64,000 bases of DNA from Gammaproteobacteria bacterium (GTDB lineage Bacteria; Pseudomonadota; Gammaproteobacteria; Eutrophobiales; Eutrophobiaceae), in assembly GCA_965243205.1 (NCBI GenBank), contig CBDEUK010000001.1, forward strand, positions 384,001 through 448,000, read 5' to 3'. A program made the translations under genes and the position numbers. The notes beneath the pieces were generated by a model. That model had not been told where the DNA came from, ran no database searches, and saw only the letters and a list, made by a program, of their open reading frames with translations. Positions 11,309 to 32,150 of the stretch are shown here, piece by piece (within the stretch, counting starts at the first letter, position 1; every line of letters begins with the position of its first letter).

Positions 11309-12490
11309 ATGTCAGAAAACGTCGTAATTGTTGCAGCAGGCAGAACCCCTATTGGGAATTTTGGTGGTGCTTTATCATCTGTTCCAGCACCTCAACTTGG
11401 GGCTAAAGTCATTGCTGCATTATTAGATAAAACAAATATAAAACCAGAACAAATTGATGAAGTAATCCTTGGCCAAGTATTAACTGCTGGTAGTGGGCAA
11501 AACCCAGCAAGACAAACAGCTATTGCCGCCGGCTTACCTGAAAGTGTTCCATCTATGACGATTAATAAAGTTTGTGGTAGCGGTTTAAAAACTATCCATC
11601 TAGCTGCTCAAGCCATTAAATGTGGTGATGCCGAAATTATTATCGCAGGCGGGCAGGAAAATATGAGTCTATCACCTCATGTACTGCCTAAGTCACGTAA
11701 CGGTACTAAGATGGGTGATTGGAAACTGCAAGATTCTATGATTGTTGATGGCCTTTGGGATGCCTTCAACAATTATCACATGGGCATTACTGCTGAAAAT
11801 GTTGCAAAAGAATATGATATTTCACGACAAGAACAAGACGAATTTGCAGCCGCTACCCAGCAAAAATGCGAAGCCGCAAGAAATGCTGGAAAGTTTGTTG
11901 ATGAAATCATCCCTGTCGAAATTCCTCAACGCAAAGGCGACCCTATTATTGTTGATAAAGATGAATTTCCTCGAGATGGCGTAACTGCGGAAGGCCTTGG
12001 CAAAATGCGTCCAGCTTTTGATAAAGAAGGAACAGTAACCGCCGCTAATGCCTCTGGAATTAATGATGGTGCTGCTGCAGTTATTGTCATGTCAGAATCC
12101 AAAGCTAAAGAACTTGGCTTAACTCCATTAGCCACAGTCAAAGCGTACGCAAGTGCTGGCGTTGATCCAAAAATAATGGGTACTGGGCCTATTCCAGCTT
12201 CGACTAAATGTTTGGAAAAAGCTGGCTGGGACAAAGACGAATTAGATCTAATAGAAGCCAATGAAGCATTTGCTTGCCAAGCCATTTCAGTGAATAAAGG
12301 CATGGATTGGGATACAAGCAAAGTAAATGTTAATGGTGGAGCTATTGCTATTGGGCATCCTATTGGTGCTTCTGGATGCAGGGTATTGGTCACTCTTTTA
12401 CATGAAATGAATCGAAGCGATGCTAAAAAAGGTTTAGCAACCCTATGTATTGGTGGTGGTCAGGGTGTGGCATTAGCTGTAGAAAAATAA
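11309..12490 (+). CDS. phaA: Acetyl-CoA C-acetyltransferase (beta-ketothiolase)
   Basis: [30 protein letters not shown]; in the pha cluster. Confidence 0.93.
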
Positions 12491-12508
12491 GAACTCGAGG
12501 AAAACATA

Positions 12509-13258
12509 ATGAAAACTGATTTAACGGATAAGGTAGCACTTGTCACTGGTGGGACTGGTGGCATTGGAGCGGCTATTTGCGAGCAATTAGCTAGCTCTGG
12601 CGCGAAAGTGGCTACTAACTATCGAAATAAAGATAAAGCTATTGCTTATCAAAAAGAAATGAAAAAGAAAGGTCTAGACATTGCTATTTATCAAGTTGAT
12701 GTTACTGATTTTGACGGCTGTAAAGAGCTTATTGAAAACATCGAAGCGGATTTAGGGCCTCTCGATATTATTGTAAATAATGCAGGCGTAACTCAAGATA
12801 CTACATTGAAGAAAATGTCGAAGGAGCAATGGGATACCGTATTGGATATCAATCTTGATAGCTTATTTAATATTTGCCGAAATGCAGTTGAAGGCATGAC
12901 TAATCGCGGCTTTGGTAGAATCATAAATATCTCTTCTATCAACGGCCAAAAAGGTCAGTTAGGACAAACCAATTACGCAGCTTCCAAAGCAGGTATGCAT
13001 GGTTTCACCATGGCTTTAGCTCAAGAAGTTGCACGTAAGGGCGTTACCGTCAATACAGTATCACCTGGTTATATCGCGACTGAAATGGTAATGGCGGTTC
13101 CCGAAAAGATTCGTGAGCAAATTATTGGTCAAATCCCAGTAGCACGTTTAGGTCGACCAGACGAAATTGCTGCCATTTGTGATTTCTTATGCTCTGAACA
13201 TGCGGGTTTTATCACCGGCGCAGATATTGCTGCGAACGGTGGCCAACATATGATGTAA
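12509..13258 (+). CDS. phaB: Acetoacetyl-CoA reductase
   Basis: SDR TGGTGGIG, ISSINGQKGQ.GQTNYAASKAG, GVTVNTVSPGYIATEMV; directly after phaA. Confidence 0.93.
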   Translation: MKTDLTDKVALVTGGTGGIGAAICEQLASSGAKVATNYRNKDKAIAYQKEMKKKGLDIAIYQVDVTDFDGCKELIENIEADLGPLDIIVNNAGVTQDTTLKKMSKEQWDTVLDINLDSLFNICRNAVEGMTNRGFGRIINISSINGQKGQLGQTNYAASKAGMHGFTMALAQEVARKGVTVNTVSPGYIATEMVMAVPEKIREQIIGQIPVARLGRPDEIAAICDFLCSEHAGFITGADIAANGGQHMM

Positions 13259-13303
13259 TGAGTTCAATATAAATTATTATTTCTTAATCAAAGGTTTAGA
13301 AAC

Positions 13304-13768
13304 ATGAGCAAGGTAAGAATTATAAAAAAATATCCTAACCGTCGTTTGTATGATACGGAAATCAGTAAATACATCACGATGGAAAACCTCAAAAACCTAG
13401 TGCTTGAAGGAATCGATTTCAAAGTTATTGATGTTAAATCGGAAGAAGATCTAACGCGTAGCGTATTGCTACAAATCATCGCGGAACAAGAGCATGGTGG
13501 AGAACCTATCTTCTCCACTGAAAGCTTAACGAAGATAATTCGTTTTTATGGTGATTCAATGCAAGGTATGGCTTCTGATTATCTCAACCAAAGCCTAGGT
13601 TTATTCGCTGAACAACAAGAAGCTCTTCAAAAACAATTTGAATCAGCAGTGGATGGCACTCCGTTAGAATCTATAGCAGACCTAACGAAGAAAAACATTG
13701 AGTTATGGACTCAAATGCAAAAGAGTTTTTTTGATGCAACCGGTTTTAATACAAAGAAAAAAGACTAA
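13304..13768 (+). CDS. phaR: Polyhydroxyalkanoate synthesis repressor
   Basis: RIIKKYPNRRLYDTEISKYIT...EDLTRSVLLQIIAEQE, the hallmark PhaR N-terminus. Confidence 0.95.
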   Translation: MSKVRIIKKYPNRRLYDTEISKYITMENLKNLVLEGIDFKVIDVKSEEDLTRSVLLQIIAEQEHGGEPIFSTESLTKIIRFYGDSMQGMASDYLNQSLGLFAEQQEALQKQFESAVDGTPLESIADLTKKNIELWTQMQKSFFDATGFNTKKKD

Positions 13769-13810
13769 CAACTCTGCAAAAGCCTGCGAGAAGATTACGA
13801 GGATTATATT

Positions 13811-14818
13811 ATGAGTAAAAATGGTAACGATTTTTCACAAATACCATATTTTAATAATGATGATTTAAAAAAGGCTCAAGAAAAAATGTACAACCAATGG
13901 TTTGATACCATGGATACTTTCTTCGGTACCGTCAATCAATTTGCGGATGCAACTCAAACAGCATTTAACATGGCACAAGAGACCCATAACGAGTCAATGA
14001 AATATTTCATGCCAAATGCCAATAACTTTTACTTCAAACCAACAACTGATAGTGCGACAAGCCTACAGACACAACACACAGGGCATATCGCTATTGTAAC
14101 TGGTGGTGTTGGTGGTATCGGTACCGCGATCTGCGAGCGTTTGTACGATGATGGTAACCAAGTTATTGCTACTTATATCAAACCAGAAGAAGAACGCGCT
14201 AAAGAATGGCAACAAGAGTATGCTACTAAAGGCTACTTATTTGAAATTGTTGAATTAGATGTAACTGATTTTGATATGTGTAAAAAAGTTGCTAGAAAGA
14301 TGAATAAAGACTTTGGTCATATCGATATCTTAGTTAACTGTGCAGGCATTACTCAAGACGCGACCTTGCGTAAGATGGAAACTACACAATGGCATAAGGT
14401 AATTGAAACCAATTTAGACAGTGTATTTAACGTAACAAAAAGTTTTCTCGATGGTATGTTAAAACGTAAATATGGTCGTATCGTTAATATTTCTTCAGTT
14501 AACGGTCAAAAAGGCCAGTTTGGTCAAACCAATTACTCAGCCGCAAAAGCCGGCATGATTGGTTTCAGCCGTTCTTTAGCAATTGAATTAGCTGAAACTG
14601 GTATTACCGTAAACACAGTTTGCCCAGGCTACGTTGGTACTAGTATGGTTGAAGCCATTCCTAAAGAAATCTTAGATGGAATTATCTCTAAAATACCAGT
14701 CGGTCGTTTGGCTAAACCAAGTGAAGTAGCTGATACCGTTTCGTTTCTATCATCAAAAACCAGTGCTTATATCACTGGCTCTGAAATTTCAGTAAATGGT
14801 GGCTTATATACTGGTTAA
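13811..14818 (+). CDS. phaB: Second acetoacetyl-CoA reductase with ~90-aa N-terminal extension
   Basis: Residues ~92-335 form a PhaB SDR (TGGVGGIG, SSVNGQKGQFGQTNYSAAKAG). A GAGG RBS precedes the upstream ATG, so the extension appears to be translated. Confidence 0.85.
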   Translation: MSKNGNDFSQIPYFNNDDLKKAQEKMYNQWFDTMDTFFGTVNQFADATQTAFNMAQETHNESMKYFMPNANNFYFKPTTDSATSLQTQHTGHIAIVTGGVGGIGTAICERLYDDGNQVIATYIKPEEERAKEWQQEYATKGYLFEIVELDVTDFDMCKKVARKMNKDFGHIDILVNCAGITQDATLRKMETTQWHKVIETNLDSVFNVTKSFLDGMLKRKYGRIVNISSVNGQKGQFGQTNYSAAKAGMIGFSRSLAIELAETGITVNTVCPGYVGTSMVEAIPKEILDGIISKIPVGRLAKPSEVADTVSFLSSKTSAYITGSEISVNGGLYTG

Positions 14819-14844
14819 TAAACGCATTTATTTTTCATTTATTC

Positions 14845-14878
14845 AAAACCCATAATCATTCATGATTATGGGTTTTTT
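14845..14878 (+). terminator. Rho-independent terminator ending the pha(A-B-R-B2) operon
   Basis: AAAACCCATAATCA-TTCA-TGATTATGGGTTTTTT, a perfect 14-bp stem ending in a U tract. Confidence 0.88.
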
Positions 14879-14905
14879 ATTTGTAATAACATTAAACTTG
14901 ATAAC

Positions 14906-15343
14906 ATGAATTCACTGACACCGTTTCATTTAGCCATACCAGTACGTGATATTGATGAAGCTCGTGAATTCTACGGCAACAAACTCGGTTTTCCTGAGGG
15001 ACGATCAGCCGGAAAATGGATCGATTTTAATTGTTTTGGCCATCAACTTGTTACTCACCTAGACGATACCATTGGAAAAACTGGAAAAGTAAATAGAATT
15101 CATAACCCTGTAGATAACGAACAAGTACCTATTCCACATTTTGGTGTAGTAATGGAAATAGCACAATGGAAAGATTTTTGCACAAAATTAGAAAGCATTG
15201 ATTGTGAATTTATTATAAAACCAAGTATTCGCTTTCAAGGCCAGGTAGGAGAACAAGCCATTGTGTTCTTTTATGATCCTAGTGGTAATGCTTTAGAATT
15301 TAAAGCATTCAAAAATATCGATGAACAATTATTTACTAAATAG
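14906..15343 (+). CDS. VOC/glyoxalase family protein
   Basis: PFHLAIPV, EGRS...WIDF..FGHQLVTH, PHFGVV, DPSGNALEFKAF. Confidence 0.88.
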   Translation: MNSLTPFHLAIPVRDIDEAREFYGNKLGFPEGRSAGKWIDFNCFGHQLVTHLDDTIGKTGKVNRIHNPVDNEQVPIPHFGVVMEIAQWKDFCTKLESIDCEFIIKPSIRFQGQVGEQAIVFFYDPSGNALEFKAFKNIDEQLFTK

Positions 15344-15361
15344 ATTAAGTTTAGACAATAA

Positions 15362-15952
15362 ATGAAAAATTTTTTCATAATCGCTTTAATCCTTCTAGCA
15401 TTTTGGCAAATAGAACAATCTAGAGTTACTTCTCTTGGACCAGGGGTTAAAGCACCAGAAGTCCCCAAACAAGATTCCATTAAGAACGCAAAGCCATTTA
15501 ACTTTGAAGGCTATCAAATTACACCGTTAGCCGATTTTTCCTTAGAGGCAAAAGTATTATCGAAAGAAAATTATTCTTTAGGTAGAGAAGCCGATTTATC
15601 ACCTGTTGATTTAGCACTCGGTTGGAAGAACATGTCAGATGAAGCTGTGATAGAAAAAATTTCTATACGACAATCAGGTCGCTGGTACCGTTGGAACTCT
15701 AAAGATTTTCCAATTCCTAGAAGAGAGATAGAAACATCAAGTGCTAATATGCATATGGTTCCTTCAACAGATGCAATTCATTCAACCTTAAAAAAAGTTC
15801 GTAAAGGTGATTTGATAACGCTGCAAGGAAAACTTATAAGAGTTAATTCTAGTGACGGTTTTAGATGGCAAAGTTCGTTAACTCGTAACGATACTGGCGA
15901 TGGTGCATGTGAATTGATTTGGGTAGAACAACTATCGATACAAAATCAATAA
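15362..15952 (+). CDS. Conserved hypothetical exported/membrane-anchored protein
   Basis: N-terminal hydrophobic segment; LSPVDLALGW, SANMHMVP and SSLTRNDTGDGACE motifs of an uncharacterised family. Confidence 0.7.
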   Translation: MKNFFIIALILLAFWQIEQSRVTSLGPGVKAPEVPKQDSIKNAKPFNFEGYQITPLADFSLEAKVLSKENYSLGREADLSPVDLALGWKNMSDEAVIEKISIRQSGRWYRWNSKDFPIPRREIETSSANMHMVPSTDAIHSTLKKVRKGDLITLQGKLIRVNSSDGFRWQSSLTRNDTGDGACELIWVEQLSIQNQ

Positions 15953-15965
15953 ATTCAATTTTTCT

Positions 15966-17027
15966 CTAACGTTTAGATAACCAATCACCTACTGTGGGCG
16001 GAATCATCTTTTGTGCTTTACCACTAACATAGATACCAATATGACCACCTGGAAATTCTAATGCTGTGTAGTCCTTAGTACCTACACAACCCTCCAATGC
16101 TTTAGATGAATCTGGCGGCACAAGATGATCATCCGCTGCATAAATATTTAAGATAGGCATTTTTAAATTGGCTAAATCAACTGTATCTTCACCAATTTTA
16201 ACAGTACCTTTGACTAAACCATTTTGCTGATAGAACTGTTTTATGAACTGTTTATAGGCTTCTCCAGCTTGATCAGGACTATCAAAAATCCATTTTTCCA
16301 TACGCATAAAATTCATGGCTTTATCAGAGTCATTAAGAATATTCACAACGTCAACATACTTTTGACCGATTAAGCGAAACGGCTTTAGCGATAAAAAAGT
16401 TGAATTTAATAATTCACCAGGCACATTACCCATTGAATCAACAATTAAGTCGATATCAACATGGCGTACCATATTACTCAAGAGATCATCTTTGGTATGA
16501 AAATCAACAGGTGTCACTGTTGTAATAAGGTTTTTTACTTTATCTGTATGTAAGGATGAATAACATAAGCTAAAGGCACCACCTTGACAGATACCTAATA
16601 AATTTATTTTTTTAAGGTTATGTTCTTGTCGAATAAAATCGACACAATTATTAATATAACCATTGATATAATCATTAAGGTCCAAATATCGATCAGAACT
16701 ATCTGGGTAACCCCAATCAATTAAATAAACATCTAAACCTGCATCTAAAAGTCCTTGAATCATTGAACGTCCATCTTGTAAATCAGCCATATAGGGACGA
16801 TTCACCAGCGCATAAACCACAAGCAATGGAACCTTATGCTGCGATTTAGTACGTGATTTATAATGATATAAAACAATTTTATCTTCTGAATAGACCGCCT
16901 CTTTCTCAGAAACACCGACATCAATTTCATTTAAATCAGATAAGGTATCAATACTTTGAGCTAATTTAGTATTAAATTCTAAAACCTCTTCTTGAATATC
17001 TTCTGGTGTAAACTTAAATGGATTCAT
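15966..17027 (-). CDS. phaC: Class III poly(R)-hydroxyalkanoate synthase subunit PhaC
   Basis: 353 aa; YALVNRPYMADLQ, lipase box LGICQGG, MEKWIFDSPDQAGE, DHLVPP, GGHIGIYVS. Confidence 0.96.
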   Translation of the reverse strand: MNPFKFTPEDIQEEVLEFNTKLAQSIDTLSDLNEIDVGVSEKEAVYSEDKIVLYHYKSRTKSQHKVPLLVVYALVNRPYMADLQDGRSMIQGLLDAGLDVYLIDWGYPDSSDRYLDLNDYINGYINNCVDFIRQEHNLKKINLLGICQGGAFSLCYSSLHTDKVKNLITTVTPVDFHTKDDLLSNMVRHVDIDLIVDSMGNVPGELLNSTFLSLKPFRLIGQKYVDVVNILNDSDKAMNFMRMEKWIFDSPDQAGEAYKQFIKQFYQQNGLVKGTVKIGEDTVDLANLKMPILNIYAADDHLVPPDSSKALEGCVGTKDYTALEFPGGHIGIYVSGKAQKMIPPTVGDWLSKR

Positions 17028-17039
17028 GGTAACAGTTCT

Positions 17040-18233
17040 TTAAAATTTTATTTCAATCACATTGTTATTAGTATTCGGACTAGTTTGGCGAGTAGATTTT
17101 CTTACTTTTTTTTTACTTACCGTCTTTTTTCGAGCCGTTGTTTTTTTCTCAGCTAAATTTGGGCTTTTGACTTTAGTTTTTGCTTTCTTCTTTTTTTTCC
17201 TAGCTGTAACAGAAGATGTATTAGTCACCTTTTTGTTTAAAACCAGATCACGAAGTTCTTGAATTTCTTTTTCAAGTTTATTGACTTTCTGTTGTTCTTG
17301 TATATTTTTTTGTTCTGCTCTTTTCAGTTTTTGTTTTAGTTGATGTTGTTCTTTTGCTAATTCATCAAACTCATTTTTAGATGTCATGTTGTAGGTGCTA
17401 TAAACTTCATTCATAAGTTCAGCACTGTCTTTTTTAAAGGCCATTAAGGCATTGACAACATTTCCATATAACAGTGAATACTCTTCACCAAGAACATATT
17501 CGCCGTAAGCTTCTTCGTTACAATCAACCCATAAATCATAGGCAGCTCTTAATGATTCAATTTTTTCTTTGTTCTGAGCTAAAACAATCAGTTTATCTTT
17601 TAATAAATCTAAACCACTCGAGGCAACTTGTGCCATTGCATCGTTATATTGTTTATTAGTTTCCTGAAATCGTTTAAATGATAAAACAGTGTGTTGAATT
17701 TTTTCCTGTAATTCTCTATTTAGGCCAAGACCAGGCATCGAAAGATATTTTTCAATATAGTCTTGAATCTCAGAATCACTAACACTTTCATCCAATATTT
17801 TTTCAAAACCAGGAATAAAGTTAACTGACGACTTCAATGCTTCTTGATTAATCTTCCATTCAGAAAGCAAACCATCTTGAAAATAATTTGACTGCTCGTT
17901 ATATGCTTGCTTCATCACTTCAATTTGTTGTTCAAGCATATTCATCCAATTTTTTTTGGTTTTCTTTTGAGAAGAAAGTAACTCTAATAAAGTTGATAAC
18001 TGTTCTCCAAGGAAATAAAAAGACTTGCCTTGATTCATGACTTTATTAAAGACTTCGAATTGATCCATAGGCATAGAAACATCATTGGATTTCCACCAAT
18101 AATTCATCGCCTGTTCCCATGGGTTTTGCGGTTTACTTTGACCAGAAATGAAGCTGTTTACTGATTCAATGTATTGTTTTTGTAGATCTGACCAATTCAT
18201 TGAATTCCAATCTTGATTAAAAAATTTATTCAT
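17040..18233 (-). CDS. phaE: Class III PHA synthase subunit PhaE with Lys-rich C-terminal tail
   Basis: Directly upstream of class III phaC; MPGLGLNRELQE, SLRAAYDLWVDCNEEAY, coiled coil. Confidence 0.88.
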   Translation of the reverse strand: MNKFFNQDWNSMNWSDLQKQYIESVNSFISGQSKPQNPWEQAMNYWWKSNDVSMPMDQFEVFNKVMNQGKSFYFLGEQLSTLLELLSSQKKTKKNWMNMLEQQIEVMKQAYNEQSNYFQDGLLSEWKINQEALKSSVNFIPGFEKILDESVSDSEIQDYIEKYLSMPGLGLNRELQEKIQHTVLSFKRFQETNKQYNDAMAQVASSGLDLLKDKLIVLAQNKEKIESLRAAYDLWVDCNEEAYGEYVLGEEYSLLYGNVVNALMAFKKDSAELMNEVYSTYNMTSKNEFDELAKEQHQLKQKLKRAEQKNIQEQQKVNKLEKEIQELRDLVLNKKVTNTSSVTARKKKKKAKTKVKSPNLAEKKTTARKKTVSKKKVRKSTRQTSPNTNNNVIEIKF

Positions 18234-18350
18234 GTTGCCAATGCTTTATATTTTTTTAATTGTATTTAAATCCCTTGTATAACAATAGTCTGAATATTCA
18301 AAGATACCAAACTATTCAGATTAATCGAAAATAACTAATCTTACTTACTG

Positions 18351-18773
18351 TTAACTGGCTTTAGATTTTGCTTTGGTCTTAGCTTTTGAAACTTTACGTT
18401 TAGTCACTGGTTTCTTTGGTTCTTCTGGAATCACAGAATCAAATTCAGTCATTTTAGGTAATTCATTACTGAACCAATTTGTTACTTCATCTTGTGAAGA
18501 ACTAATGACTGCACTTGCTTGTTCTGCAATCTTAATCACTTTATCTTGTACTTCGCTAGCAAACTGAGCTTCGGCACTAATAAATTCATTATAGTCTTTA
18601 ATATTACTGACTAATTTGAATTGCGCTAAACCGCTCTCAAAACTGATATTGGCAAGGTTCATCTGAATAGTGGCCAATTCATTTAATGTGGTTGTATTAA
18701 TATCAGTCAGCTTTTGGATTGCTTCGTAGGAAGCCTTACTGGCGTTGGTGATTTCTTCAAAGGTTGTATTCAT
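18351..18773 (-). CDS. phaP: Phasin family protein
   Basis: 140 aa, helical and Ala/Gln-rich, phasin_2-like pattern, upstream of phaEC with a PhaR-type operator. Confidence 0.75.
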   Translation of the reverse strand: MNTTFEEITNASKASYEAIQKLTDINTTTLNELATIQMNLANISFESGLAQFKLVSNIKDYNEFISAEAQFASEVQDKVIKIAEQASAVISSSQDEVTNWFSNELPKMTEFDSVIPEEPKKPVTKRKVSKAKTKAKSKAS

Positions 18774-27921: not shown

Positions 27922-29709
27922 TTGGACACAATTTCTTCTCTCTCGCTGATTGTCGTATTGGGCATCACCTGCCAGTGGTTGGCATGGTGGGCTCGCTTAC
28001 CTGCTATTTTATTCTTACTGATCACAGGCATGCTCATAGGGCCAGTAACGGGTGTTTTAAATCCTGATCAATTATTTGGTGATCTTTTATTTCCCATGGT
28101 GTCTCTCTCCGTAGCCGTCATCTTATTTGAAGGCAGTTTGACCTTAAAATTTGATGAGATTAGAGGCTTGGGTTACGTGGTGCGTAACATGATCAGTATC
28201 GGCACACTGATTACCTGGATCGGAACCGCATTAGTCACTCATGCCTTATTGGATTTTCCATATGAGTTATCGTTTTTGTTTGGCGCAGTTGTTATCGTAA
28301 CTGGTCCTACTGTGATTGTTCCAATTCTAAGAAGTGTTAGGCCCAATGCAAAAATCGCTAATATCCTGCGTTGGGAAGGTATTACCATCGATCCCATTGG
28401 CGCTTTAATGGCGGTCTTGGTTTTTGACTTCATTATTTCCAAACAAAACGAATACGTATTTAGCAATATTCTGATCGTGTTTGGAACACTCATCTTTGTC
28501 GGCACTGTCGTTGGCATAATCGCAGCTCTCGCACTTAACTATGTTCTAAAACGTCATTTAATACCTGAGTATTTACGCAATGTATTTGCCTTAGCGTTGG
28601 TTTTTGCAGCATATGCTGTTTCCGATCTATTTGTTCATGAGTCAGGCTTATTAGCCGTCACCGTTATGGGTATTATTCTGGCCAACATGAAAGAAACGGA
28701 TATCGAAGACATACTTGATTTTAAAGAGACATTGAGTGTTCTACTCATATCTGGATTATTTATTATTTTGGCTGCACGTATTGAGTTTGAACAATTCCAA
28801 CAACTGGGTTTTCGATCGTTTGGAATTTTATTAGCGCTTATGTTCATCATTCGCCCGCTTAAAGTATGGATCTCGTCTATTGGCTCGGACTTAACCGTAG
28901 CTGAAAAAATGATGATTTCTTGGGTTGGGCCAAGAGGTATTGTAGCAGCAGCCATCGCTGCATTATTCGCTATTCGACTTGAAGAAGCGGGGTTTCCTGA
29001 AGCATCTTTATTAGTACCACTGACATTTCTTATCATTATTGGCACTGTCGTAATCCAAAGCTTAACCTCAAAACAAATTGCTAGCTGGCTAGGTGTACGT
29101 GAACCTGCTGCAACAGGAGTGTTGATCATTGGCGCGGGTAAAGTCGCAAGAGTGATTGGCAAAGCTATTCAAGAACAAGGATTTAAAGTCGTCATGACTG
29201 ACAGTAACTGGGAAAATACCAGTCTTGCACGTATGGAAGGCTTAATGACGTATTTTGGTAACCCTATATCTGAACATGCTGACCGTAATCTAGATTTAGT
29301 TGGCGTAGGTTCAATGTTGGGGCTATCTGGGCGTGCCAACCTTGATACATTAGCAGCTCTTCGCTTTCGTAACGAATTTGGTTCGAATAGCGTTTATGAA
29401 GTAAAAACTAGCCGTGAAGATATTGTTGGTGATAAACATATTGTTTCGACACGTCATCGTGGCTTCCAGTTATTTTCTAATGATATTACCTATGGAACCT
29501 TAGCTAACTGGATAGGCAATGGTGCTGAAATTAAAAAGAATCAATTAAGTAATACCTTTGATTACTCAAATTTTCAAGATAAATATAAAAACAATTCCAT
29601 TCAATTATTCGCAATTGATCCTAAAGGAAAATTACATTTTTACGTTGCTGAAAAAGAACTTAAACCTGAAGCCGGTTGGAGTATCATCAGTTTGATTCAA
29701 CCCGCATAA
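27922..29709 (+). CDS. CPA1/NhaP-type cation:proton antiporter with C-terminal TrkA-N-like domain
   Basis: About 12 TM segments, ILFEGSLTL, VTGPTVI.P, LRWEGI.IDPIGA, GPRGIVAAA, GVLIIGAG; TTG start. Confidence 0.9.
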   Translation: MDTISSLSLIVVLGITCQWLAWWARLPAILFLLITGMLIGPVTGVLNPDQLFGDLLFPMVSLSVAVILFEGSLTLKFDEIRGLGYVVRNMISIGTLITWIGTALVTHALLDFPYELSFLFGAVVIVTGPTVIVPILRSVRPNAKIANILRWEGITIDPIGALMAVLVFDFIISKQNEYVFSNILIVFGTLIFVGTVVGIIAALALNYVLKRHLIPEYLRNVFALALVFAAYAVSDLFVHESGLLAVTVMGIILANMKETDIEDILDFKETLSVLLISGLFIILAARIEFEQFQQLGFRSFGILLALMFIIRPLKVWISSIGSDLTVAEKMMISWVGPRGIVAAAIAALFAIRLEEAGFPEASLLVPLTFLIIIGTVVIQSLTSKQIASWLGVREPAATGVLIIGAGKVARVIGKAIQEQGFKVVMTDSNWENTSLARMEGLMTYFGNPISEHADRNLDLVGVGSMLGLSGRANLDTLAALRFRNEFGSNSVYEVKTSREDIVGDKHIVSTRHRGFQLFSNDITYGTLANWIGNGAEIKKNQLSNTFDYSNFQDKYKNNSIQLFAIDPKGKLHFYVAEKELKPEAGWSIISLIQPA

Positions 29710-29736
29710 CAAAGTGATCACTTGCAATAAATAAAC

Positions 29737-29768
29737 TGTGATCTAGTTCCCATTTCAAACAAGTCACA
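29737..29768. promoter_or_regulatory. CRP-type boxes upstream of sRNA candidate 1
   Basis: TGTGA-TCTAGT-TCCCA (29737-29752) and a weaker TTTCA-AACAAG-TCACA (29753-29768); TAAAAT -10 candidate at 29803-29808. Confidence 0.55.
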
Positions 29769-29812
29769 ACTAGAAATTCATATTCGCTTAATAGATCCTA
29801 TCTAAAATTATA

Positions 29813-29907
29813 GGTGTAGCTTTCCATGTGTAGTGAAGTAGTGAAACAGCATGGGGTTACTCTTAATCCCTCCTCCCCAAGAGTAGCCCCAAGCTTTTAA
29901 CTTTTTT
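29813..29907 (+). ncRNA. Putative small RNA 1 with CCUCCUCCCC loop
   Basis: 13-bp stem TGGGGTTACTCTT/AAGAGTAGCCCCA (29852-29891) with loop AATCCCTCCTCCCC, then T-rich tail; -10 and CRP-type boxes upstream. Ends are approximate. Confidence 0.55.
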
Positions 29908-29947
29908 ATGTCTAACATTAATAGTGAAAAAATAATTGTTGACTTTA

Positions 29948-30022
29948 TGTGATTTAAATCACGCCTTTACGGCTCATTTTGTGAGAATAATCACAGATAT
30001 CCTGATCATGAATTACTAGACT
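29948..30022 (+). promoter_or_regulatory. Tandem CRP-type boxes and -10 (class II geometry) upstream of sRNA candidate 2
   Basis: TGTGA-TTTAAA-TCACG (29948-29963), perfect TGTGA-GAATAA-TCACA (29980-29995), TAGACT -10 (30017-30022). The second box centres at about -41.5 for a start near 30029. Confidence 0.7.
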
Positions 30023-30028
30023 TATTAC

Positions 30029-30107
30029 CGAAGACATCAATACCTCTCTATGCAAATATGCAGATCGGGATTGGCCACCCCCCCCCAGGCTGATTCCGAT
30101 TTTTTTT
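30029..30107 (+). ncRNA. Putative small RNA 2 with poly-C loop terminator
   Basis: 13-bp stem ATCGGGATTGGCC/GGCTGATTCCGAT (three G-U pairs, so + strand) with loop A-C9-A and a T8 tail. Confidence 0.6.
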
Positions 30108-30242
30108 ATCAAGCAATCGTTCAATTAAACCGCTATCAGGATATAATGTATTACATAATAATTGATTGTTAATACATTATTATTTATCAAAATGATGTGT
30201 AATAGACTACTATTAGTATTTTAATTTATTTGTTTCTCGATA

Positions 30243-32150
30243 ATGAACAATAGCAACTACAACAATGCATTAGCCATTGATACTGAATTACTTTGGTATC
30301 GAATAGAAGGGGTACTTGGCCAAGGTGCGTTTGGTATTACCTATTTGGCGCATGATATTTATTTGGATAGAAAAGTTGCGATTAAAGAATACATGCCTGG
30401 TGCGTTTTCAATGCGCATGGATGATCTAAATATTGAACCAATTTCCAGTGATCTCACTAATGATTATAAATCTGGTTTAGAACGTTTTTTAAGTGAAGCC
30501 AGAACTCTTACTAAATTCAAACATCCAAATCTCGTTCAAGTTTTCAATATATTTGAAGAAAACAATACCGCCTACATGGTAATGAGTTATGAACAAGGCC
30601 GTAGCTTAAAACAAATTTTAAAAACCAGAAAATCATTATCAGAAACAGAACTGATGAATTTATTAGTGCCGCTAATGGATGGCCTCGAAATGATGCATGA
30701 AAAAGGTTTTATTCATCGTGATATCAAACCAGGAAATATCTTTATCCGTGAAGATAACACGCCTGTACTACTGGATTTTGGATCGGCTAGACAAACTCAT
30801 TATTTCCTTAGTGATGATGATGAAGAGTCACAAGTAAAAACGCTAACAAATTTTGTTTCTCCTGGTTATACACCGATTGAACAATACAGTGGCAAGAGTG
30901 ATCGCCAAGGTCCATGGACAGATATTTATGCTTTAGGCGCTACATTATATAAATGTATTACTGGCAGAATGCCAATTGAAGCAGTGGAACGTAGTGAAAG
31001 CATTGTTCACGTCAGTAAAGATGAATATGTGAGCCTTTATGAAATTGCCCAAGGTAAATATTCTAAATCATTTCTAAATGCAATTGATCATTCCCTCGAA
31101 TTCAAAGCACAAAACAGACCTCAAACCATCAAAGAATGGCGAAGCGAATTTGGTATCTCGATTGAAGAGTTCGATACTATTGAGTTACCAGAAGAAAATA
31201 CAGATGAATTACAAAGCCCTCTGGATATTAATACAGAAAATTTAGAAACATTAGAAGCAACCACTTATCAAAAAACCATACCTGAAAATCATGAAGCTAC
31301 TACTGTTGCTGCTGAAAGCCGTTTCGTTAAGAAGAAAAATTCATCAATAAAATCATTTATAACTTATGCTACCGCAGCTACGTTATTAGTAAGTGTATTT
31401 GCTATCACTTATTATCAAATTAATAAACCTAATGATGAGATTAGCGAGACTGTTACTCAACGATTAAACACTATTCCAGATCCAATCATAATAGAAGAAC
31501 GGACTCCACCAGTTACTGAGCCAAATACATTAACAGAAATAACCATTCAAACTACTCCAATCGGAATTGATGAAGAAATAGAAAAAACTAACACCTTAAA
31601 AGAAAGAATCGCCAAACAAAAATCTGATAAAAAAGAAGAAATCGAGATATTACTTCGTTTGGCCGCTAAAGATATTCAAGCTAAACGATACACTTTACCT
31701 GAAAATAATAATGCTTATGAAAAATATCAAAAAGTTTTGGCAATAGATGTATCTAATGAAGATGCTAAAAATGGTATCTTATTTTTAACGGATAAGTTTA
31801 TGATTGCAGCTTATAGAGAAATTGAAAAAAATAATTTCGATGGTGCAAAGGAAAATATAGCCAAGGCTGATACCTTATCTCCAAACTTGGATGCCGTGAA
31901 ACGAGCTAAAGAACATCTACAAAGGAAACAGCGCCAATATTACGCTGCCCAACGTGCCGCTCAACGACCACCTGAATCTCAAGTTAGTAATGTTCCTTCA
32001 AACGAACCAACCGTGAGTTCAACAAATACAGCAAACGATGGTGTTAAAGTCGTCGACTTATCCAGAGATGTTCCTAGCAAGCAAAAAGATTCTATTCCTG
32101 ATAACGAAATCGACCGTACTATTAAGTCTATTCAAACTTTGTTTGACTAA
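30243..32150 (+). CDS. Hanks-type Ser/Thr protein kinase, single TM, periplasmic TPR-like domain
   Basis: LGQGAFG, VAIKE, HRDIKPGN, DFG, GYTPIEQY, DIYALG; TM near residue 375; C-terminal NAYEKYQKVLAID..N..A repeats. Confidence 0.9.
   Translation: MNNSNYNNALAIDTELLWYRIEGVLGQGAFGITYLAHDIYLDRKVAIKEYMPGAFSMRMDDLNIEPISSDLTNDYKSGLERFLSEARTLTKFKHPNLVQVFNIFEENNTAYMVMSYEQGRSLKQILKTRKSLSETELMNLLVPLMDGLEMMHEKGFIHRDIKPGNIFIREDNTPVLLDFGSARQTHYFLSDDDEESQVKTLTNFVSPGYTPIEQYSGKSDRQGPWTDIYALGATLYKCITGRMPIEAVERSESIVHVSKDEYVSLYEIAQGKYSKSFLNAIDHSLEFKAQNRPQTIKEWRSEFGISIEEFDTIELPEENTDELQSPLDINTENLETLEATTYQKTIPENHEATTVAAESRFVKKKNSSIKSFITYATAATLLVSVFAITYYQINKPNDEISETVTQRLNTIPDPIIIEERTPPVTEPNTLTEITIQTTPIGIDEEIEKTNTLKERIAKQKSDKKEEIEILLRLAAKDIQAKRYTLPENNNAYEKYQKVLAIDVSNEDAKNGILFLTDKFMIAAYREIEKNNFDGAKENIAKADTLSPNLDAVKRAKEHLQRKQRQYYAAQRAAQRPPESQVSNVPSNEPTVSSTNTANDGVKVVDLSRDVPSKQKDSIPDNEIDRTIKSIQTLFD

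Follow-up and report, generated by a model that had tools for sequence, protein, structure and literature searches.

The 533-bp ORF-poor gap at 29710-30242, in the 64,000-nucleotide stretch of gammaproteobacterial DNA analysed here (the window), most probably holds two tandem paralogues of a trans-acting sRNA gene, predicted to be CRP-driven and to carry anti-Shine-Dalgarno loops, that diverged after duplication; we put the probability of this reading at roughly 70%. On comparative grounds, both units are members of one conserved, uncatalogued sRNA family and are diverged tandem paralogues of a gene that is usually single-copy, and the family members are very probably real RNA genes. Alignment of these members shows an independent gene unit in which one or two in-phase putative CRP boxes are followed at class II spacing by a −10 element, then by a 5′ hairpin whose loop is CU-rich and a terminator hairpin whose longer loop is C-rich. 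The gap is bounded on its 5′ side by a cation/proton antiporter gene, which is the final gene of a run of fabA-fabB, two hypothetical genes and the antiporter, and on its 3′ side by a Ser/Thr kinase gene. The parts of the locus are as follows.

27922..29709, + strand: cation/proton antiporter gene, usual upstream neighbour of the sRNA element
29737..29752, unstranded: CRP-type box with 1 mismatch, centred ~70.5 nt upstream of the putative unit 1 start
29753..29768, unstranded: degenerate CRP-type box with 2 mismatches and an intact right half-site, with no class II-spaced −10 element behind it
29803..29808, + strand: candidate unit 1 −10 element, TAAAAT, tentatively assigned at a spacing off the family norm
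29815..29907, + strand: unit 1, putative sRNA of ~93 nt from a predicted start, with a diverged 5′ half and family hairpin 1 lost
29830..29845, + strand: 8-nt stretch duplicated in tandem within the 5′ part of unit 1, which is not conserved; the duplication is missing in a same-genus genome
29852..29907, + strand: unit 1 terminator hairpin, with the canonical anti-Shine-Dalgarno family loop (29865-29878) and a T tail
29948..29963, unstranded: unit 2 distal CRP box with 1 mismatch, three helical turns (32 bp) upstream of the proximal one
29980..29995, unstranded: proximal CRP box of unit 2, perfect, at the class II position (centre ~−41.5)
30017..30022, + strand: unit 2 −10 element TAGACT, fitting the family consensus TAGA[C/A]T
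30029..30107, + strand: unit 2, putative sRNA of ~79 nt, its start predicted from the promoter spacing
30030..30049, + strand: 5′ arm and CU-rich stretch conserved in unit 2, corresponding to the left arm and loop of family hairpin 1, right arm gone
30063..30107, + strand: unit 2 terminator hairpin with C9 loop and T8 tail
30243..32150, + strand: Ser/Thr kinase gene, downstream and outside the sRNA element

The features listed in the first-pass annotation of this DNA, including the gap, boxes, hairpins and duplication, were all recovered where it had placed them, and its proposal of two putative sRNA genes on the + strand is supported. The unit 1 hairpin pairs arms 29852-29864 and 29879-29891 (13 bp, one G-U) around a 14-nt C-rich loop (29865-29878) and is followed by an interrupted T tail (29895-29907), and the unit 2 hairpin pairs arms 30063-30076 and 30088-30101 around an A-C9-A loop (30077-30087), with the T8 tail at 30100-30107. 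Folding z-scores against shuffled sequences were about −3.0 for each unit and −7.0 for the unit 1 hairpin alone, and the 11-nt loop motif of unit 1 occurs only once in the 2.79-Mb genome. The stretch is identical in two contig sets of one sample, which are possibly its own source. Separately, a perfect 12-bp palindrome lies directly after the antiporter stop codon (29712-29723) and was not seen in the same-genus genome. The further claim that one module is present twice needs correcting: neither box of unit 1 has a −10 element behind it at class II spacing, so the module is not intact in two copies. Likewise, the stems do differ, as had been noted, and the two units are nonetheless related by descent rather than sharing architecture only.

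Evidence for a family comes from the homolog search in related genomes that the first-pass annotation had proposed. A plain DNA search reached only the same-genus genome, which has both units and keeps the unit 1 loop letter for letter on a rebuilt stem. Reading behind antiporter orthologues located the element in 29 of 30 fetched loci, and at the thirtieth an insertion shifts it by ~3 kb. A covariance model (R1), built from 32 units including both window units, matched 66/126 genomes of the host's family across 26/34 genera, mostly in single copy, and 4/149 genomes from other gammaproteobacterial families; these genome counts are samples in which kin are not independent. A second model (R2), built from 39 two-hairpin units with this genus left out, gave matches in 14 of 60 apparent non-carriers, five of these with a CRP-type unit, and was positive in 6/7 genomes of one of those other gammaproteobacterial families, where three of five new copies have a perfect box with TAGACT at 21 nt. 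Among 50 of 80 named genomes searched, R2 also finds the element in Methylohalomonas lacus HMT 1, in canonical family form and behind the same antiporter. Here, its genome-wide scores were 26.8 bits for unit 2 (E 0.034) and 20.9 bits for unit 1 (E 0.78). One other genome carries equal-scoring copies on separate contigs (G141:C2:432792-432888 and C6:43000-43096), possibly an assembly duplication.

Structurally, the usual family RNA is ~85-105 nt long, comes from a single-copy gene, and has two hairpins with C-rich loops: hairpin 1, at the 5′ end, has a CU-rich loop with CCUCCC, and hairpin 2, the terminator, has a longer C-rich loop. Covariation analysis, also proposed beforehand, found 12/14 terminator pairs changing on both sides (0.437 versus 0.232 shuffled, slid controls ≤0.222) and 16/24 pairs for the two-hairpin structure (0.275 versus 0.149 shuffled), these structures having been named by hand so that the pair counts lean towards them. 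Covariation of hairpin 1 is modest, with 3/6 inner pairs and changes shared among kin. One row of alignment A5 is missing its 5′ hairpin owing to a coordinate slip, and RNAalifold on a MAFFT alignment returned only 5 pairs because stem lengths differ. The loops are kept while the stems change, as had been anticipated: the terminator loop is 89% conserved by column versus 49% for the upper stem, and this loop with its anti-Shine-Dalgarno motif is predicted to be unpaired.

The promoter offers an independent test, since the models contain no promoter. The 41 R1 matches outside the training set (from 32 of 37 untrained family genomes plus 4 genomes outside, one reverse-strand duplicate dropped) included 35 with a CRP box of ≤2 mismatches followed after 20-22 nt by TAnnnT, and the pattern is missing in the other six; random places in the same loci had it in 20/6574 cases. 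The G and C that separate CRP sites from FNR sites are invariant in 32/32 boxes, which had been picked for CRP likeness (≤2 mismatches), and control by FNR was rejected, its site (TTGAT-N4-ATCAA) being unlike these boxes. Second boxes are found further upstream, at 32, 41-43 or 48-53 bp, close to three, four or five turns of the helix, and similar phasing occurs in promoters co-activated by two CRP dimers. Within this genome, all six perfect boxes are intergenic, and 30/68 boxes with ≤1 mismatch are intergenic against ~9% intergenic DNA (binomial 6e-14); this excess argues that the CRP motif is in use in the organism. A box with ≤1 mismatch and a −10 element at 21 nt occurs at five sites genome-wide, and only that of unit 2 is then followed by a C-rich run. 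The perfect box of unit 2 at class II spacing and its second box 32 bp upstream are as first described; the 21 nt from perfect box to −10 element equals that of E. coli cyaR, and, taken with the family-wide promoter pattern, these features make CRP activation of unit 2 highly likely. Class II control of unit 1 is not supported in this genome, unit 1 being the sole one of 32 aligned units without a −10 element within 1 nt of class II spacing.

Could the locus be something more ordinary? Both hairpins would terminate transcription well, convergent genes often have their ends a short way beyond them, and in this genus the kinase gene is on the same strand, so that ordinary or bidirectional terminators, or an attenuator in the kinase leader, with the CRP boxes serving a neighbouring gene, had to be considered. 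A terminator needs no conserved 11-nt loop, no second hairpin and no fixed promoter. At loci without the antiporter, the element is still found, following fabB or the hypothetical genes; in 7/7 non-carriers read downstream of the antiporter, neither boxes nor hairpins are left; and the next gene downstream varies and is convergent in 51/64 loci. The convergent neighbour, the antiporter-independent position and the joint loss argue that the element is neither an operon terminator nor a leader, and we regard this explanation as very improbable; a leader of the kinase gene specifically was rejected, the downstream gene being variable and mostly convergent. Another suggestion is that the minus strand encodes a small protein, with the C-rich stretches acting as Shine-Dalgarno sites of its gene; in many members, the 5′ part read in reverse complement does give a G-rich site and then ATG. 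The minus-strand frames have no common length (1 to 200 codons) or sequence, 8/41 loci have no such ATG, and the family promoter points the opposite way, by which the suggestion is largely refuted.

Evolutionarily, tandem pairs are found in this genome (G000), in G001, G019 and G123, and again in genus g17, and both window units match one model. Seven of the eight units of G000, G001, G019 and G123 share a decamer at their 5′ start, either exactly or with one letter changed, the exception being window unit 1, and a tree of 31 units was too weakly supported to give the order of duplications. Both window copies have lost family hairpin 1. Unit 2 retains its two-box promoter along with the hairpin's left arm and loop, now predicted to be unpaired; unit 1 retains the canonical terminator loop and has a diverged promoter and 5′ half. 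In G001, G019 and G123, the second copies likewise keep the 5′ arm without its partner arm, which suggests that the arm is under selection as a seed.

The least secure part of the tandem reading is unit 1. Only unit 2 may be active, with unit 1 decaying and its hairpin either ending the fabA-fabB-antiporter transcript or being processed from its 3′ end. Unit 1 lies on the operon's strand directly behind it, differs from the 31 other aligned units in having no class II −10 element, carries a private duplication, and has the most diverged 5′ half (39-50% identity to other units). Against decay stand the unchanged loop in the same-genus genome despite the rebuilt stem and the 1-mismatch box ~70.5 nt before the TAAAAT-defined start, a working distance for CRP class I activation. 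We consider a decayed unit 1 the less probable account, though one that deserves weight, and give slightly better than even odds to unit 1 still using a promoter of its own in this genome; the box ~70.5 nt upstream may drive it, or the RNA may be made from the operon 3′ end.

Regarding the regulator, the genome encodes CRP (334 bits versus a curated cut-off of 266) with the recognition helix SREMVGR, an FNR-like protein and Hfq, as well as five cyclase-domain matches (one class I and four class III). PTS EIIA-Glc had no match in the genome. The genes behind other CRP boxes (24 scanned) include pilin, GspH/FimT-like, PilT-like ATPase, PilZ and GGDEF/EAL genes, together with cNMP-binding proteins, a cyclase and a malic enzyme. 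Such a CRP gene set resembles that of Pseudomonas Vfr more than catabolite repression. The 30 intergenic CRP-type boxes likewise sketch a regulon with many pilus, c-di-GMP and cNMP-binding genes, in which a PilT-like gene has class II geometry. Control by carbon status, which the first-pass annotation had proposed, is therefore unsupported: there is no EIIA-Glc match, and the genes behind the other boxes are mixed. Four of five outside-family copies with scanned neighbours adjoin a ROK sugar kinase gene, which points weakly back to carbon. These CRP-type RNAs (L259, L260, L261 and L284) lie beside a fructokinase-like ROK gene, twice with an OmpR-family regulator as well. As for CRP itself, no orthologue was found by the query used in four of five non-carriers (97-99% completeness), and the fifth keeps CRP. 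These near-complete family genomes without a CRP orthologue by this query (G010, G006, G113 and G030) suggest that CRP has been lost repeatedly in the host's family.

No named Rfam family reached its gathering score on the window or on 20 member loci, in line with the initial failure to assign one; the best result on the window was MicF, at E 5.5. Searches of openly available article text turned up no description of the family, which supplements or subscription journals may nevertheless contain as an unnamed sRNA. The closest likenesses are ErsA/Pseudomon-1 (RF01719), anti-hemB (RF02837) and sX13 (RF02232), which share C-rich loops and a near-identical terminator module with the family; best scores on the 20 member loci were 27.5 of 50 bits for Pseudomon-1 and 21.7 of 49.5 for anti-hemB, and RF01719 had no match in this genome. 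ErsA lies near polA and engB. The ErsA/sX13-like look-alikes have three hairpins, sit near polA or engB, and carry a sigma-E-like promoter in 17/24 cases (control 109/3635), whereas family members have two hairpins and, in place of a sigma-E (AlgU) promoter, the CRP class II pattern. A look-alike model (R3) covers family members only over ~60-118, the terminator, at ≤22.6 bits, and weak R2 matches elsewhere in the class score up to 49.8 bits as anti-hemB and 33.9 as Pseudomon-1/ErsA. The CRP-type RNA and the three-hairpin RNA coexist in several genomes, and in this one the polA/engB-type position is filled by a separate ErsA/sX13-like RNA rather than by the window pair (G000:C2:1875012-1875132, − strand, L368:3013-3133), which matches the look-alike model over its full length at 44.2 bits. 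It has three hairpins and a sigma-E-like promoter, is flanked by an M48-type peptidase gene and an engB-like gene, and is probably an ErsA/sX13-type RNA that Rfam misses here; a 2-mismatch CRP-like box lies upstream of it. More broadly, the three-hairpin type is widespread in Gammaproteobacteria (L262-L279, L285-L297, L349-L361), and its members score partly as anti-hemB, Pseudomon-1, ar14 and sX13, a mixed scoring which suggests that these four overlap in one superfamily. The similar first loop and terminator make a common ancestor possible, so the family and the three-hairpin RNAs may share one, or may have converged. A more specific version, which we rate as unlikely, is that the family is a CRP-rewired ErsA/sX13-type paralogue that lost its middle hairpin, with the same G-rich start sites coming under both envelope stress and cAMP; a further duplication in this lineage would then have let one copy free its 5′ arm as a seed spanning Shine-Dalgarno site and start codon at once.

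Other known RNAs resemble the family in part. Enterobacterial CyaR is CRP-activated (PMC9765468). With CyaR (RF00112) the family shares a CRP box at class II spacing (21 nt), length (~87 nt), C-rich loops and a U tail, and it differs in loop size (6 nt in CyaR versus 11-20) and neighbouring genes; E. coli CyaR scored 6.4 bits against R1 (E 1.3), and RF00112 had no match on the window or the 20 member loci. The cuckoo RNAs (CcsR1-4, RF02791; ar14, RF02344) have two to four hairpins with a CCUCCUCCC loop, variable stems and tandem copies (PMC4615179). That CCUCCUCCC motif is found in the family's terminator loop, with the 5′ loop having CCUCCC only and the window copies lacking the 5′ hairpin; further, the cuckoo RNAs have an alphaproteobacterial host and share a transcript with a small upstream gene, unlike the family's gammaproteobacterial hosts and own promoter, and the best scores were 23.1 of 58.8 bits for RF02791 and 17.6 of 65.3 for RF02344. 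The Neisseria tandem siblings NmsR-A and NmsR-B repress translation with two anti-Shine-Dalgarno motifs (PMC5362039). They differ in having three stem-loops and 70% identity between siblings, PMC5362039 does not mention CRP, and no Rfam or sequence match to NmsR was found here. The Burkholderia double-hairpin 'toxic' sRNAs (RF02278) are likewise short hairpin RNAs with CU-rich unpaired stretches (PMC5688073). This description fits SuhB/MmgR (RF00519) and the family as well; the best scores were 16.5 of 50 bits for RF02278 and 17.6 of 41 for RF00519, and the target ranking gave no SuhB/MmgR-like link to PHB.

Functionally, we propose that cAMP-CRP switches the family RNA on, and that the resulting ~90-nt RNA would display both C-rich loops unpaired. 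By analogy with sX13, NmsR and ErsA, these loops would base-pair at G-rich ribosome-binding sites and keep the 30S subunit from loading, probably assisted by Hfq on the U tail, and many mRNAs with unusually G-rich sites would be dampened rather than a single one. Xanthomonas sX13 represses mRNAs with G-rich start regions via C-rich loops (PMC3771888), and ErsA, with Hfq, represses algC and oprD (PMC8395346). Duplication followed by divergence of the copies in this genus would have left unit 2 as the CRP-driven copy, with an unpaired 5′ arm able to cover both a Shine-Dalgarno site and a start codon, plus the C9 loop, and unit 1 with the canonical loop and a remodelled promoter. By that analogy, action through pairing with ribosome-binding sites is likely. 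A competing explanation accepts the RNAs as real and CRP-driven and takes them for decoys, with the C-rich loops binding a protein or a G-rich RNA such as another sRNA. No target was validated among those ranked and compared, and sibling sRNAs are known to be sponged in carbon-starved Caulobacter (PMC12559287). The loops are the complement of the Shine-Dalgarno sequence and resemble the genome's own 16S 3′ end, and RNAs of the same build repress G-rich or Shine-Dalgarno sites (sX13, PMC3771888; NmsR, PMC5362039), which speaks against decoys; we hold this to be improbable, and translational repression remains our preferred account.

Candidate targets were ranked over 2630 genes from our own gene caller, some with wrong starts. 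The targets suggested initially did not emerge: phaA, the phasin-like ORF and acs ranked 244, 244 and 118 of 2630 for the unit 1 loop, and phaB, phaR, phaC and phaE were likewise at rank 118 or worse. Apart from this ranking, the window carries a PHA cluster at 11309-18773 (phaA, two phaB-like genes, of which one is N-terminally extended, phaR and class III phaEC) beside TCA genes and acs. The best matches for the unit 1 loop were a CspD-like gene, amtB and two PQQ methanol/ethanol-family dehydrogenase genes, which we take to be XoxF-like and which are the only 2/2630 genes with a GGAGGAGG site. Both dehydrogenase genes (G000:C2:209642-211609 and 537780-539765) share a doubled Shine-Dalgarno site that is unique to them in the genome and conserved across the family, and weak anti-hemB matches lie directly behind both. 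Comparison of loci gave no separation of carriers from non-carriers, neither for the dehydrogenase G-rich sites (11/13 carrier versus 8/12 non-carrier loci) nor for those of the CspD-like gene (7/8 syntenic loci in each), leaving these candidates unsupported. An ErsA-like RNA with similar loops is present in 5/5 genomes tested, two non-carriers among them, and the comparison is blunt because non-carriers hold this second C-rich-loop RNA. Orthologues of amtB have G-rich sites in 4/4 carriers and none in the one non-carrier, too few to weigh. For the 5′ arm of unit 2, gltA ranked 23 by duplex energy and 15 with accessibility; a FocA-like gene, the top unit 2 match, was dropped, having no counterpart in 5/5 relatives. 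A genome-wide scan for C-rich-loop terminators returned 7 versus 7 in a G-rich control and missed unit 1, giving no enrichment. Two further loci in this genome were noted in passing: an sRNA candidate between convergent genes, with a hairpin, a long CU-rich anti-Shine-Dalgarno-like loop and then a separate terminator (G000:C2:450835-450927, + strand, L257), and, ahead of a cytochrome c-like gene, an AG-rich stretch that has a CCUCCUCC motif and two hairpins together with a terminator loop rich in C (G000:C2:2141600-2141710, + strand, L370).

The anti-Shine-Dalgarno loop mechanism is already well known, which limits the surprise; the interest lies in a family outside all Rfam models, mostly from uncultured Gammaproteobacteria, with unusually clear wiring, in that its CRP promoter persists in at least 26 genera and has disappeared together with CRP from several genomes. 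The named strain Methylohalomonas lacus HMT 1, with its canonical form, makes the family testable. The repeated tandem duplication with uneven loss of parts would be a natural case of sRNA sub-functionalisation, and the family would represent a CyaR-like circuit far from the enterobacteria and a readout of what cAMP means where the glucose PTS has no match. If the less likely reading of the family as a CRP-rewired ErsA/sX13-type paralogue were true, the candidates for such dual control would be the two PQQ dehydrogenase genes, the ammonium transporter and the CspD-like gene, and one-carbon oxidation would be under cAMP-driven translational control in bacteria seemingly without glucose PTS signalling.
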